A stretch of 60,696 nucleotides of DNA from NCBI GenBank assembly GCA_026025795.1, contig JAPEUG010000065.1, forward strand, positions 1 through 60,696. Direction: 5' to 3'. Source of the DNA: Thelocarpon superellum (taxonomy: Eukaryota). Positions 42,680 to 50,632 of the stretch are shown here, one piece after another. The position numbers and the translations under genes are program-made. The notes under the pieces are model-generated. The model was not told the DNA's origin. It saw only the letters and a list, made by a program, of their open reading frames with translations, and made no database searches. Position 1 is the stretch's first letter. Each line of letters opens with the position of its first letter.

Positions 42680-43183
42680 TTATAAGACTGGTCCTGGAGG
42701 TGCTCCCGTCTCCGTGATCTTATCCTCGTCCTCATCTGTAATCATACGGTTTCGAAGCCGCTGGATATCGCCGTCATTCAAGCCGCATTCTTGCTTCAGG
42801 TAGCCCTCTGCGCTTCCCCACTTCGCGTGCATCATTTCTAACGCTGCTAGCATGTTGTTTGCCCTGTGCGCCCAACTCAGGTTAGTCGGTCCATGCGTCC
42901 ATTGCTGGTGCGTAAGTATCGGTAACGCGACGGGTGATGCTGATGCTGACCTCGCTGATACCATGTTCGACGCCCCCTCTCGCTTCCCCTCCAGTGCTGG
43001 GTGTTTCATCAGATGGTCGATGATGCGCGGGATCCACTCCGTGAGTCCCAGCTCCGTGAGTTCATACTCGCGCGCGATCGTGGCCTCGTCCACGCCGCAG
43101 AGCGAGAGGATCAACGCGACCAGAACGCCGGTTCGATCTTTTCCTGCCGTGCAGTGGATCAGACACGCCTGTGGCGGCGACGG

Positions 43184-43230
<47 letters not shown>

Positions 43231-43782: not shown

Positions 43783-45530
43783 GGCGGCCCGTCTCGGTCT
43801 GGCCCAGGAGACAGCGGCCGTCCTCTCCGAAGCGGTCTGGAGATCGGACGATGACGAGGGTCTGGCCCGGTCAGCATCTGGTCCATTCTAATGGCGCACC
43901 TGCGCGAGCCTCTTTGACGTTACACATACCAAATCCACGGGCATCTCACGAGCCTTGCAGCTGCGAAGGGCCAGGCATCTTTAAGTGACCTGTCACATCT
44001 GACGGAGCGTCCTCCCATCGTGGCGTCCACTATAAGTTGGAGCCGAGGCGGTCTTGTCTTTACTTGCGGAACGGGTGGGCGATCATGGCTACCCGACTCT
44101 CAGGTTCGTCCAATCGGGGGGGAGTGCCGTAAGGCGAGCGTCCGCCCAGTGAGCTGGCCACGAGCGAGCCTCCTGACTCGTCCACGTCACAGTGAGGACG
44201 CTTCCGTAGCCCTGAAGCCGTTGTGCGACCACTGTACAGTTATGAATCATCGTCGGCGCATCCACAGAAGCATTCTGAAAATGCAGAGGCAATTACTCTA
44301 GTGCAGCATCCCCGCCTGCCCCAGCTAGTCCCCGCCCCTCCTGTCCGAGCATTTCGCGGTTCAAGCAAAAATATGCTGTGATGTGTGCTCGTAGCATGTT
44401 AGTGGTGTAGATCGGTTTGAGGTAGTCCGGCGTGGGGGCATCATCTACAGCTTCGTTGGCGTTGGCCGTGGGTCAGGAGATTTTAGACGCAAGAACATGG
44501 CTACCCCACCGAATTCTCAGTTGGGAAAGCTGTAACGGACGGCGCTCTCGACTGTATCACGATCGACGCAAAATACTAATTACGAGAACACCAAAAAGAT
44601 TGTCTTCCTGTGCATCAACCGGGAGTCGAACTGTGTTGTAATTAGGCAATAGTTACTGGGGTGGATGATAATCGAGCTTACCCCGGGTCCCTTGCTGATT
44701 TCACATGGAAGGCAAATATTCTACCGTTGAACCATTGATGCGTAGATCGAAATTTCGCCAAGTAATCAATATAATGTCCATTCAGGATTTTTGCCTGCCT
44801 CTACCATTACGTAGATCCGACAATTTTTACTTCGACGGCATTCGTGACGCCGGACAACATTTCGCCGCCATACCCGAGGAGACTACATTAAAGACGCGCG
44901 TGACGACTTCCTTTTCCCAGAGACACGGCCCCTCGTCCAATGATGATGCCCCATCGCAAAAGCGAGGAGGGAAAGACGGTACCCAAGCCACCTGGGCAGT
45001 TTCAGCCGAATATTGGTTGAGGAGCCAAATGATTGGGCAAGCGCGGCAAACGCGTCTTGCATAAGCCTTGGCCTTGGAGTGATGATCCTGAGATGAGGCC
45101 GGTCTAGGCCTGCTGTCTCTCCTATCCGTACAGATCAGGCAACGCTGTGTCTTTAGATCAAACAATCCACATTGGTCTTTAGCTTCGCCGGCTCAAGTCT
45201 GGTCAGGAAGTGGAATTCTATGCAACCGAGCCCTGCCTAACGGCCGTGACATGACCGCCTGACGAGGATTCCTTCGGTTCTCGGAAGAGGCTGACGAAGT
45301 CGGACTTGTTCGATGCTTGGGGGCCCTCCGGCCTGTGTGCTCGGGTAGCGCGGGACTGGGGCATGTTGGCCCTGGCCCGAAGGCGTTCGGCTCCCGCCCC
45401 CCGTCACTCCGCGCCCATACTACTCCCCGAGCTCGAGAGGATCCGATGCAGCGCTCGTACCAGACCGATGGAGTCTCCATGCTGCTCTCTTTCCGCTGTA
45501 CCGCGCAGACCGTGGAGCAAACGAGATTGC

Positions 45531-45554
45531 CACCTGCACCTGCACCTGCACCTG
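45531..45554. repeat. (CACCTG)4 hexamer repeat
   Basis: Read directly from the sequence. Confidence 0.85.
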
Positions 45555-46609
45555 TGCAACCTGAGACGTGTGATTTTATCAATGTTTGATCCAGTCGTGA
45601 CCGTTGCATTTCCCGCTGCACCACGCCCGAAGCGCCCGCGGGCATGAGGCGGCCGAGGGTATTAGGGTCTGCAAACTGGCCGCCCTTCGAGCCCCTCCCA
45701 CCGGGGCGTGAATGGGAGCCCCGACTCGCAAAGCCGAGCATGTCCTTGGATGAAAAGGACAGCGACCACAGCGATCAACGTGAGCACCAGCCCCTCCTTC
45801 CACCATGTCCATCTTCTAGCGTCTTTAGCTCGGTCTAGGTACTAGCAATGCTGCGTCGACCGGTGTTAAGTGGAGTGCATCGAGCAAGCACTGGCCGGGC
45901 GACGCTGTCGCTGGCTCCACCATCCGGCTGCCGCGTCTCCGTGCATAGCTCCGTCATCGCCTCGACCATACCGGCCACGCACCTGTGGGACCAGGTGCGA
46001 ATAGATGGGCGGGAATCGCAGGGGGTAGGGTCAGAAAGGACGTCCCTACGTCCACTAGACGGGCGGAAGGTCGCCGATGCAAGCTGGCAAATAACCCCCA
46101 CCCCCTCTGGGACCCGTCCACGTCCAGGTATGCCCCGGTGGTCCATCACGAGGTCAAGGGTGCTTTTTCTTCTTCAACAGTATCCATGTCACCGCAACGG
46201 GACCCAAGTTATGCTCGCATTAGCCTCGCTTGGAATTGATAGCGGCTGCATGCGGGCCCGCATCGGACGTCATATGAAGCCTCTCGGTCTACTTCCGAAT
46301 CCGAGGTGCGGGTGCGGCAAGATCGATCGCCGCCGTTACGCTGCGTGGTAGATCTCCGCTGGAGAGGATCTTCGAGCTCGGGCCGCAGATTCGTGGGGCC
46401 TACAAAAACTCTCTTACGGCCTCTCGTTGAGGACATGTCCATATACGTCGGCCATCCCTAATCGAACACACACCTTCAATCATCACCCTCTCTTGGAATT
46501 GTCTTTGGTCGGCTTGAACTGCCTGGACTGCCCGTGTGCTCGTACATTTATCCTCTGCTCCTAGCTCGTCCAAGCGGTGCTTGATTCGCCTTGTTCGGAG
46601 TCGACGGAT

Positions 46610-48151
46610 ATGGCGCCACAGGGTGATATTCCAGTGGTATGACATGGTTTTCTTCCTACCTTGGCTCCACGAGACTGACCCTGATCTCATAGGCGGCGAA
46701 TGTGTTGGGAGTATGTATGGTTGATCTTCTCTTTGTGTCGTCGACTGACATGCCTACTCTGCTCAGACAATCGGCACAGGTATATAGAGCGGACCGGAAG
46801 ACATCGATGCCCTTGCTGATGGTGTCTAGTGTGAGCGGCGTGGACTGCGTGTGGTATACTATATGGCTGACAGCCTCCTGCCTAGCTTCTGGACAGTACA
46901 GGTCAGCTTCATGATACAAGTTAAGAATTACCTGCTGACCCACTCTAGCTCATTCCCCAGTACACCTCCCGCCTCTCTCCCGATAACCTCCCCTTCAACA
47001 AGCCCGCTGATGAATTTGAAGGATATGGAGTAACTGGCGTCACAAGAAAACGGACGGGCTACCGGGCGTCATGATGCTTCTATGGGCGTTTGGTATAACA
47101 CCTCGGTTCATGGAAAGCTCGTTCCCGCAGACTGACCGATCCAAGCGGCAATTCCTTTCGGAGTGTACGCAATCGTACAGGTAAGTCAAGCCACGACAGG
47201 CTTCTGAACACGCTCACCACGACTGATGAGCCAGAATTTCGCTGTTCCCATCCAGATCCAGCCACAGATCTTCTGTTTCCTGGCGATGTTTGGCTGGGCG
47301 CAGACGCTGATGTATCATGAGTATGACGAGCTCTTCCGGTAATGGGATATCCGACTGACGACCTGTAGTGGATGGGCGACGTGGAAGGCCATGGCCGTGT
47401 CGTCACTGACGGCTGCCTCGTTCGCGGGTATTGAAGCGGCGCTGATCCTTACACTGAGAGTGAGTCGTCGCACACACTCCCCGTCTGTCCCTCCCGCCAA
47501 CGGATGACATAGGGGCCGTACGAGCGCGGCGTCGACACTCCGATCTTTGTCGTGGGCGTAATTGCGGGAGGCATCTTGGGAATCGGCCTGCTGCCACCCT
47601 ACTACGAGATTTACAAGCGCCAGGGACGGGTCGTGGGGATTAGTACGGTTTCTCTCCTCTCGGTGCGACGTGGGTGTTGTGATGATTGATGACTGACTTT
47701 CTGTCGACAGACATGATGTTTCTGACCATTGACTGGTTCGGGGCGTTTTTCTCCCTGATGGCATTGGGTGGGTATTCCCACAAACTTGGCAGACCGGCCG
47801 CTCACATTCCTCCGTCTAGCCGCCCAACGCTCTTTTGATGTGCTGGGGGGAAGTCTGTACATAGTGGTGTGAGTGCTTTCTTCCCTTCTAGCAACTTTGT
47901 CTGCCGGCACGCTAACAAGAAGACGACATCAAAGTCTCCTCCTCGAAGCGGGCATCTTCGTCTCGCACACGATCTGGATGTACCGGAACCGCGAGGTACG
48001 CAAGAGGGCGAAGCAGGCAGGCAAGGACGTCGATGATTTCCTGTCTGTTTCCATCTCTATCCCTGACTCGGGCCTGGAAGCGGGAGAGGAAGGGGGGGCG
48101 ATGGAGAAGGAGCAGGATTCAGAGATGGGTGCAGCGCGCATGTGTACGTGA
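46610..48151 (+). CDS. PQ-loop repeat membrane transporter, 14 exons including microexons of 18, 13, 1, 16 and 11 nt
   Basis: Exons 46610-46636, 46693-46710, 46767-46779, 46830, 46886-46901, 46949-46959, 47022-47092, 47146-47180, 47235-47320, 47369-47459, 47513-47642, 47711-47767, 47820-47868, 47935-48151. Spliced product: MAPQGDIPVAANVLGTIGTVFWTVQLIPQIWSNWRHKKTDGL...QIQPQIF...GLLPPYYEIYKRQGRVVGIN..FLTIDWFGAFFSL. Confidence 0.92.
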
Positions 48152-48523
48152 GCGCCTCTCCCTTTCTTGCTCCTCCTTGTACTGTTCCCTATGCCAAGTG
48201 AGCATGTGAGCACAGCGCGGACGGCCTGTGGGATAGGAGAAGGAAGAAAGGAGGGAAAGGGGCGATGGACGAGTTTGATCGAGCGTGTTTATCCATTTGT
48301 TTCCCATTCTCTTTTCGCTCCTATCTTTCTTCTACTCTCTGAACATCGACGGCCTCTTTTCTCCTCTCTCTTTCCACTCCTTGCTTACACTCGACCTTGT
48401 AGCTTCTTTGCTTTCTTCGTCTTCTTTCGTCCTCTTAGCACTATGCTAGCCTCCAGCATGATCTGATACGTCAGAGAGAAGATGCGTACAAGTACAGCGG
48501 CGCGTCGCAGGGCTACATCTACA

Positions 48524-50038
48524 CTACACGCTCGTAGGAATCTTGACCTGTCCCCTCTTCCGATCTTCATGCGGCACGCCGTAGCGCCAGCCGGTGCCAT
48601 TGGGATCTCTCCCGTCTGCGCCGACGTCCTCCACATTGACCCTCCGAACGCGCCATTCCCAGCGTCCGCCCTTCCCGCCCTGTTCGGCAGGCAGCACGCG
48701 CAACATCTCCCTCTCCTCCCTTGCCTTCCTCCGCTCGTCGCGGCGCAGTTTGTCCCTCGCCTCCGCCTCGCCTCGCTTCCGCGCCCGCGCGATGCGTTCG
48801 TCACGCGGCACGCCCTCGGCCCGCTCGCGCTCCAGCTCGATCAGCTCCGGGTGAGGAATGCGCTCGTCGGCTGGCAAGAGGGGCAGTGTGGGATCGAAGA
48901 CGCGTCCGGCGTCGGTGCGTGTGAAGACCCGTGACTCCGACGTTGGCCAGAATATCTGCGTCCCCGTCGCTGGGTGCGTGGGCAGGTCGTTGATCGGTTC
49001 GTGCGGAACGGGGTACCGTGCCTGATACGGCGTCCGTGGGAGCATGGATAGGATGGCTCGTGCGTACGGCGTTGCGAGTTTGCGGCCCTGCTTGGGAAGA
49101 GATGAGATGGGTCAGTGCATTGGATTGGCAGGGTTGAGGCGGTGGTGAGAAGGGCCGGCAAGTAATAGCTGGGATCAGAGAGGCTCGCAAAGCGTGTTGT
49201 GTTGTAACCATGGATTTTGGTGGTCTTCAAGACCAATCGATGTATTGGGTCTCATCATGTAGAGCTGGGCCGCGGAGGGTGGATAGGGAAGGTGAAGGGA
49301 CGGTGAGAGACTGACCTCTTGGATCCATTTTTCTTCCACGGCTTTCAACCGCACCACCGCGCCGACGCGTCGCATCTCCACTCCCAATTCCGCACTGACG
49401 ACCTTGACGGACTTCCCTTGCTCCTTCACCCGTCGGTATATCTCCTGTCGGAGGTCTTCGTCCAAGACTGATTGCGACCGAAACATCGCATTGAGCGGGA
49501 ACGGTCGAAGGTCCCGTGCATCTTCTGGGGGTAATTCAGCGGAGTCGGCCGAGGCTGAAGAGGAGGGTGAGGAGGGTGAGGAGGATGAGGAGGACGAGGA
49601 GGAGGATGAAAGGGTGGAAGATGAACTAGGCGCGATAGGAGACGTTCCCGCCTGGCCTTCTTCCGTGGTGGAGGCACTCGCCGTCGCCATCTTCGAACCT
49701 CCGTCTGACGACTCTCCATCCGCCGGCTGCTGCGCCCGCTGAAGCCGCCCAAATTTATCGTAGGCGCCAAGATAATTCGTCGACCCGGGAAGAGGATTGC
49801 GAAAGACGGCTCCAGGACCGTTGAGCCAGGCATACATGGCCTGCCGCTGTCTCGTAGTGCGCTTGGAGCCGGGCGAAGTGGAGGTGCGGACGGTGCGCCG
49901 TGTCTGTCCATCATGCCATGGTAGGTCGGGAAGCGCGGCTCGACACGGTGAAGCTTGCAATGCGAGTGACGGTAGGGTCGGGGGACTGAATTGACATCGT
50001 GGCGCCTGCGATGTGATTGACGGTATTCGTGGGGGCAT
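48524..50038 (-). CDS. MRPS35: Mitochondrial small-subunit ribosomal protein mS45 (Mrps35/Bot1)
   Basis: Exons 50038-49316 and 49087-48524. Arg/Ser-rich presequence; motifs TNYLGAY, PFPLNAMFRSQSVL, VSAELGVEMRRVGAVVRL, SESRVFTR and GWRYGVPHEDRKRG. Confidence 0.92.
49175..49258 (-). ncRNA. Intronic box C/D snoRNA with two LSU-rRNA antisense elements
   Basis: C box ATGATGA (49258-49252) and D box CTGA (49178-49175). Guides TCGATTGGTCTT and TGCGAGCCTC are complementary to conserved LSU rRNA stretches AAGACUAAUCGA and GAGGCUCGCA, recalled from memory. Lies in the unusually long (228 nt) mS45 intron. Confidence 0.8.
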
Positions 50039-50632
50039 GATGTGTATGTGTGGTGGAAGAGGCTTTGAAGCTCTGGATTTGACGTCCTGGATTAAGGAAG
50101 AGTCTCGAGAAATTTCGGTTAGACGATGCTCTTCCTCGCAAGTGGCGGACACTGCGTGACTGGTCTGCGCACCCGCAACTCCACCGTCGAAGAATAGGCC
50201 GCTCATTGTACTTGGAGGCGGCCCATTCAACTGTGCACGTCTATGCCGATACTATCATATAATAGATATTAGAGACTCTCAGAGAGTACAATCGGTACAC
50301 TGGGGACCCTCTTTAGCTTTGCTCGTGTGCTGGTCATGAGGGCGGTCAGTCCAGACTCTGGGGGGTGCGCAGACTAGTGTTCACCAGTTGGTAGACAGGC
50401 GTCTTTCTCACGCGTAGTCTGGCGCCTACTCGAGATGTCGAGTTCCAGCACCGTCGCTACTCCACCATCGCGTTACAGTCCACCTCTCCATCATTCCTTT
50501 GAGTGATATCTTGCTTTTGTCTTGAATTTGGATGTGATCCCTTGTGCACATCTAATGCAATGCAAAGCTAACCACATAGCTCCTTTTATCGTTACAGCCC
50601 ATCATCTAAACCCTCAAACGATCCTCCTCTCC

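Follow-up and report, generated by a model that had tools for sequence, protein, structure and literature searches.

At position 46830 of a 60,696-nucleotide (nt) stretch of Thelocarpon superellum DNA (GenBank assembly GCA_026025795.1, contig JAPEUG010000065.1, positions 1 to 60,696 of the forward strand; hereafter the window), a single T stands between what appear to be two complete introns, raising the question of whether this base is an exon in its own right. The contig belongs to a metagenome-assembled genome (MAG) of T. superellum, a lichen-associated fungus from a Pezizomycotina genus in the order Thelocarpales. The gene concerned, which was re-modelled from the window sequence, occupies 46610-48151 on the plus strand (span 1,542 nt), encodes a PQ-loop membrane protein and is colinear with its homologues. 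Comparison of the DNA with related proteins indicates that T46830 is very probably a genuine one-nucleotide internal exon of this gene, in which case it would be present in the mature messenger RNA (mRNA).

The exon upstream of the site, exon 3 (46767-46779, 13 nt), encodes T-I-G-T followed by G, the first base of a split valine codon, and ends with ...ACAG. It is followed by intron 3 (46780-46829, 50 nt, phase 1), which runs from GTATAT to TCTAG and contains the branch motif GCTGAT at 46815-46820, placing the branch A 10 nt from the 3' end. Exon 4 is the single T (46830), the middle base of the valine codon G|T|C. Intron 4 (46831-46885, 55 nt, phase 2) runs from GTGAGC to CCTAG, with the branch motif GCTGAC at 46866-46871 and the branch A 15 nt from the 3' end, and exon 5 (46886-46901, 16 nt), which begins C TTC TGG, supplies the last base of the codon and F-W-T-V-Q. 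Exon 6 (46949-46959, 11 nt) encodes L-I-P and contributes two bases to the Gln codon in the PQ motif. All positions, intron lengths and branch motifs given for this site in an earlier note, which was made from the letters of the window, were reproduced.

Both introns carry the order of signals found in the other 11 introns of the gene, namely GT, a branch motif and YAG. With a crude position matrix trained on these 11 introns, the donors at 46780 and 46831 scored 3.1 and 1.3, respectively, within the training range of 0.13 to 4.54, and the acceptors at 46829 and 46885 scored 1.21 and 1.93, within the range of -0.81 to 3.37. The reading frame is lost under two other treatments of the site, as the earlier note had predicted: retention of intron 3 leads to a TAG stop after two codons, and skipping of T46830 shifts the frame, with a stop after 45 residues. 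T is the sole base of the four to yield valine, the most common residue of the homologues at the split codon (39 of 73). Two features of a spliceosomal one-nucleotide exon were found at T46830, in that a complete donor/branch/YAG intron lies on each side of the base, and the base is needed both for the frame and for the conserved spacing of the protein.

To cover the alternatives systematically, splice paths through 46767-46901 were enumerated, combining 21 GT/GC donors with nine AG acceptors into paths with one intron or two, each ≥30 nt long. Fifty-six paths had a length divisible by three, 18 were free of stops and 10 retained the downstream frame. The assertion that only G+T+C restores the frame was therefore too strong, given these 18 stop-free canonical paths; what is unique to the one-nucleotide exon among them is the spacing of the family, a single residue between the flanking motifs. 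No in-frame path with a single intron ended at the nearby AG at 46873, in agreement with its description as out of frame. Single introns that give the right spacing would have the borders GT..TA, TA..AG or GG..CT, which are not known intron classes, and were rejected.

The expected spacing was taken from the homologues. A search with the deposited protein of the gene, P0001, gave 286 proteins at E ≤ 1e-10 among 1,438 candidates, and the best 120 of these 286 were used; minus P0001, this left 119 homologues, almost all of them fungal PQ-loop proteins. The motifs before and after the split codon were both present in 75 of the 119, and in 73 of these 75 they were separated by exactly one residue (V 39, I 29, G 2, R 2, T 1). 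The two exceptions were P0075, with two residues, and P0012, with 15. With the T included, 56 of the first 65 residues of the model are identical to P0102.

The isoforms were then scored against a profile of those 75 homologues in which both motifs are present. The one-nucleotide exon isoform scored highest, at 438.2 bits, followed by an isoform with a 4-nt exon, CGGC, at 46836-46839 (431.4 bits), one with a 1-nt exon and the acceptor at 46873 (430.9 bits) and one with a single 117-nt intron ending at 46896 (420.4 bits). The deposited model reached 301.5 bits, and the scores of a [D1,2]-stwintron reading and of the T-skipped isoform were 33.8 and 30.9 bits, respectively. The proposal that a single valine codon is divided as G|T|C over three exons is supported by the spacing of the family, the best profile score, splice scores within the range of the gene and a low chance expectation.

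This chance expectation was estimated with the composite signal 'branch motif, 4-28 nt, AG, N, GTRAG', which occurs three times in the 121,392 strand positions of the window, the T46830 site included. In the 16 positions of a 106-nt intron at which both halves would measure at least 45 nt, ~4e-4 occurrences are expected. Sites elsewhere in the window that match a looser pattern are mostly ordinary exon ends. When the window was scanned for combinations of strong donor, branch and acceptor, an excess over shuffled sequences was found only at 40-79 nt, with 13 observed and ~5.2 expected; at 100-119 nt, a single candidate was observed where 3.05 were expected from shuffles. Two introns of about 50 nt therefore fit this genome better than one of 106 nt.

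The re-modelled gene consists of 14 exons of 27, 18, 13, 1, 16, 11, 71, 35, 86, 91, 130, 57, 49 and 217 nt, separated by 13 GT..AG introns of 47-68 nt each, and its coding sequence of 822 nt translates into 273 residues. At its start (46610-46959), six very short exons follow one another in series (27, 18, 13, 1, 16 and 11 nt), with introns of 47-56 nt between them. Exon 7 (47022-47092, 71 nt) codes for the middle part of the first PQ-loop repeat. When the stretch 47020-47184, in which this exon lies, was translated without interruption, it matched positions 21-50 of the 61 positions of the Pfam PQ-loop family PF04193 with 24.8 bits (cut-off 22). The homologues P0102, P0015 and P0024 matched PF04193 with 67.6-72.7 bits over residues 11-69 (profile positions 2-60), and the numbering of the model therefore agrees with that of the homologues. 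The gene product is a PQ-loop repeat protein (PF04193).

The deposited annotation tells a different story. P0001, a protein of 244 residues named hypothetical protein, was reproduced exactly from 11 exons. Its model shares the exact boundaries of the 46780-46829 intron, but reads on in a shifted frame: exon 2 is lengthened by 4 nt, exon 3 and 24 nt from 46830 are read in the wrong frame, and a 292-nt 'intron' (46854-47145) removes exons 5-7. The final 209 residues, from exon 9 onward, are identical in P0001 and the re-modelled protein. When P0001 was compared with Pfam, no family was matched, because the 292-nt 'intron' swallows three real exons; the first PQ loop, which is the only Pfam-recognisable domain of the gene, is absent from it. 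The expectation that annotation tools would miss a one-nucleotide exon is thus borne out at this very locus.

Further searches around the gene were largely negative. A protein search with the translation of exon 11 returned, among 26 candidates, only P0001 for this gene and hence no independent record of it. A word search with 47020-47181 gave zero candidates sharing three 5-residue words, a result that is uninformative, given that P0102 shares an identical 15-residue stretch. None of the minus-strand open reading frames (ORFs) overlapping the gene exceeded its Pfam cut-off (best 14.3 bits versus 27), and a search for solved structures related by sequence to P0102 yielded none of relevance.

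As for how the two abutting introns would be spliced, introns 3 and 4 are best viewed as independent, complete U2-type introns of a size ordinary for the gene, located at phase 1 and phase 2 of one valine codon, each of which would be recognised across itself (intron definition). Two consecutive intron-definition reactions are proposed, in which the introns would be excised one after another because a 3' and a 5' splice site only 1 nt apart cannot plausibly serve two spliceosomes at once; sequential removal of introns 3 and 4 is a reasonable inference on these steric grounds. The resulting mRNA would read ...ACA GTC TTC..., which would put the valine shortly before the PQ motif, within the first transmembrane helix.

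Whichever intron leaves first, the second donor is preceded by A, G, T and the first acceptor is followed by T; the removal of either intron leaves the signals of the other unchanged. If intron 3 is removed first, G46779 joins T46830, forming a new donor, GTGTGA, that starts 2 nt before the proper one. In the crude matrix of 11 introns, this donor scores 2.25 and the proper GTGAGC 1.3; its use removes both G and T, and the product is truncated at 31 residues. If intron 4 were removed first, the GTGTGA donor would never be formed, which would make this the safer order. Pairing of donor 3 with acceptor 4 would skip the T altogether. Since use of GTGTGA and skipping of the T both give premature stops, some unproductive splicing is plausible. 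A further proposal holds that AG-T-GT is conserved in Thelocarpon and serves as a kinetic gate, with productive mRNA arising only if intron 4 leaves before intron 3. This is regarded as unlikely; if it were true, the wrong order or skipping of the T would produce decay-prone transcripts, and the order and speed of splicing would set the level of the transporter. A regulatory on/off switch is speculation.

Several considerations weigh against T46830 being an exon. The case is built on DNA and protein comparison in one MAG, the splice-site matrix was derived from just 11 introns, and the lead over the 4-nt-exon isoform is only 6.8 bits. RNA structure over 46767-46901 was no better than in shuffled sequences (z = +0.68; the fold was equalled or bettered by 152 of 200 shuffles). 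As GTGTGA outscores GTGAGC, mis-splicing may be frequent. Finally, the rarity of one-nucleotide exons counts against the reading, one-base indels from assembly or mutation being mundane, and the source of the gene is a MAG. This last point leads to a different explanation, according to which 46780-46885 is one intron of 106 nt and the frame problem reflects a one-base MAG assembly indel at the junction or a very recent real frameshift in a nascent pseudogene. We consider it unlikely. Such an intron would have to contain, by chance, an internal branch motif followed by AG, N and GTGAG in a position that leaves halves of normal size, for which the ~4e-4 occurrences estimated above apply, and the intervening base would by chance be the one of four that gives the commonest residue of the family. 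It would also be longer than any of the other 11 introns (47-68 nt) and fall in the size class in which the window scan found fewer candidates than the shuffles. As regards the indel or pseudogene, homopolymer runs are absent at both junctions of the 106-nt interval, and the other 13 exons show no damage and align colinearly with the homologues.

The remaining alternatives keep the deposited bases and move the splice sites. A micro-exon of 4 nt, CGGC (46836-46839), between introns 46780-46835 and 46840-46885 would introduce two alanines instead of one valine; the path is canonical GT..AG, in frame and stop-free, and its profile score comes closest to that of the one-nucleotide exon. Yet it would place two residues at a position that holds a single one in 73 of 75 homologues, and its acceptor (GAG, -4.42) and donor (GTGGAC, -2.22) score below those of all 11 other introns of the gene. 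In 3' splice-site choice, the AG nearer to the branch point is used first, and the AG at 46829, lying between the branch point and the acceptor of the 4-nt exon, should accordingly be preferred; we judge this path to be improbable. Slightly less probable again is a single 117-nt intron (46780-46896) after which exon 3 would continue with only the final 5 nt of exon 5, at the cost of four residues that include the conserved Trp. It is likewise canonical, in frame and stop-free and dispenses with a 1-nt micro-exon, but its profile score is 17.8 bits lower, it deletes F-W-T-V, for which the window has correctly framed codons immediately behind a good acceptor, and the AG at 46885 precedes that at 46896 downstream of the same branch point. 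That the site operates as a [D1,2] stwintron, with intron 3 leaving first and an external intron then being removed from the G46779+T46830 donor (GTGTGA...), so that the main product is a frameshifted, non-functional mRNA, is very improbable: although the newly formed donor has the higher score (2.25 versus 1.3) and [D1,2] stwintrons are described as common in some Pezizomycotina, the product stops after 31 residues and the remainder of the gene is conserved and intact, so that this cannot be the productive route, though it may be a by-product. The lowest probability was assigned to the deposited model being right and the protein lacking a first PQ loop. P0001 is the public annotation and has an open reading frame assembled from canonical GT..AG introns, but it has no Pfam match, scores 301.5 versus 438.2 bits and needs a 292-nt intron over three exons, one of which lies in a stretch that matches the PQ-loop family above the cut-off by itself.

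With T46830 as a one-nucleotide exon, the locus can be set beside the systems described in the literature. In Arabidopsis thaliana APC11, a one-nucleotide exon was shown by complementary DNA sequencing and by constructs with substitutions and deletions (Guo and Liu 2015, PMC4674806). That exon is an A located 333 nt into an assigned intron of 422 nt, and its authors argue for intron definition with the introns removed one after the other (PMC4674806). The site in T. superellum resembles APC11 in that a single nucleotide lies between AG and GT inside an interval once annotated as one intron, is essential for the frame and was missed by annotation. It differs in that the retained base is T rather than A, the introns measure 50 and 55 nt, and it is predicted from DNA and protein comparison.

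A further case is found in the CYP621A P450 genes of Fusarium, in which a one-nucleotide exon, G in AGGGT, is conserved across the aligned Fusarium genes and represented by 18 SRA reads (Nelson and Syed 2026, PMC12940212). It was inferred from a phase mismatch and from alignment, the interval in F. graminearum being 139 nt, about twice the usual intron length, and its authors count it as the second known case, and the first from a fungus (PMC12940212). Both are ascomycete genes in which the middle base of one conserved-motif codon forms its own exon, in T. superellum as a strong prediction, whereas the site in T. superellum has T in AG-T-GT, is seen in one MAG and belongs to the PQ-loop family, not to the P450s. 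At 106 nt, the unit formed by introns 3 and 4 with the T between their ends would be more compact than that of APC11 (422-nt assigned intron) and that of F. graminearum (139 nt).

That such exons are rare, as had been claimed, holds true, but the claim was somewhat overstated, as a 2025 long-read annotation of Coprinopsis cinerea reports 13 one-nucleotide exons in 13 genes, together with 57 exons of 2 nt, and states that leaving out many of the micro-exons creates premature stops (PMC12230235). C. cinerea is a basidiomycete and the study is a genome-wide catalogue with transcript support; what it shares with the present case are fungal exons of ≤3 nt. It shows that micro-exons of ≤3 nt are a recurrent feature of intron-rich fungi. 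In our literature search on one-nucleotide exons, organellar cases only were found beyond APC11, CYP621A and C. cinerea, and a search on Thelocarpon genomes returned floristic papers only.

The locus had also been likened to stwintrons. By definition, these have a splice signal (donor, branch or acceptor) of an external intron split by an internal one; the external intron comes into existence only through the first excision, and nothing of either is kept. It is described as through stwintrons that intron definition became established for Pezizomycotina (Fekete et al. 2017, PMC5587772). The likeness consists in two short U2 introns in contact within a Pezizomycotina gene, for which two successive intron-definition reactions are likewise proposed, and the sequence G|GT...AG|TGTGA can formally be read as [D1,2]. 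It ends there: each intron is complete alone, one base is kept and the [D1,2] reading shifts the frame. We conclude that the pair of introns 3 and 4 is not a stwintron, because the definition requires an interrupted splice signal and both introns carry complete ones. The analogy is accordingly not supported.

At the ratchet points of recursive splicing, nothing is retained and the introns are very long. One base is kept here and the introns are minimal. What the two arrangements share is an acceptor directly followed by a donor, with the interval removed in two steps, as at the zero-length exons mentioned in PMC4674806.

The homologues further suggest that this part of the gene is difficult to annotate throughout the family. 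One or both of the motifs flanking the split codon are lacking in 44 of the 119 homologue records, 26 of which are truncated or replaced at the N-terminus and are missing the first motif entirely, and the other 18 break right after the first motifs. The pattern suggests that the run of micro-exons is widespread in the PQ-loop family and that gene predictors frequently fail on it; this exon structure is probably of old date, and mis-annotation is common in the family. As homologue annotations break right after T-I-G-T, an old phase-1 intron may be envisaged at this place, joined by a second intron that would have arisen 1 nt downstream in this lineage. It was also observed that several homologue records diverge directly after T-I-G-T or skip exactly what exons 3-5 encode in T. 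superellum.

P0012, one of the two spacing exceptions, is a protein of the sister species Thelocarpon impressellum and carries its 15 residues at the place of the split codon where others carry one. The insertion resembles a read-through of the second intron (window 46821-46895, in the frame of the downstream exon). It agrees with the peptide of intron 4 in the residues that span AG-T-GTGAG, in a Gly-Leu pair, in the Met of the branch site and in the final Ser-Phe-Trp. The AG-T-GT junction may thus be conserved in T. impressellum, as far as can be read from this protein. With P0012 as annotated, though, the interval running from donor to acceptor would measure no more than 28 nt.

A tandem duplication or an introner-like origin of introns 3 and 4 was considered and rejected, as the two are not similar: their global alignment score was -4, compared with -8.2 ± 3.5 for shuffles, 66 of 500 of which reached it. 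A separate observation concerns introns 1 (46637-46692) and 2 (46711-46766), both of 56 nt, with a score of 12 against -6.9 ± 4.1 for shuffles, none of 1000 of which reached it. They match largely in the shared splice signals (GTATG, GACTGAC, YAG), and a common origin is not established.

Elsewhere in the window, simple repeats were seen at 1-42, the start of the contig ((GA)21), and at 43178-43228 ((CGA)17), and about five copies of GAGGAGGAT lie at 49560-49603 within a long minus-strand ORF (49175-50251). A comparison of 45500-48700 with known RNA families gave two sub-threshold matches only, both outside the feature, and no transfer RNA genes were found in the window.

If T46830 is spliced in, it would be a further natural one-nucleotide exon, in a lineage of Thelocarpales. 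It would differ from the known cases in its host lineage and gene family, in retaining a T and in the shortness of its two introns (50 and 55 nt); for the PQ-loop family, no one-nucleotide exon was reported in the literature searched. Knowledge of splicing as such is unchanged, because one-nucleotide exons have already been demonstrated elsewhere. Being so short, the flanking introns would allow a very small fungal minigene with which to study in what order, and how accurately, abutting introns are spliced, and, should the kinetic gate prove true, the locus would be a handy natural substrate for how two spliceosomes handle such introns. The gain for annotation would be that a phase-aware search for micro-exons repairs a PQ-loop family that is mis-annotated on a wide scale.

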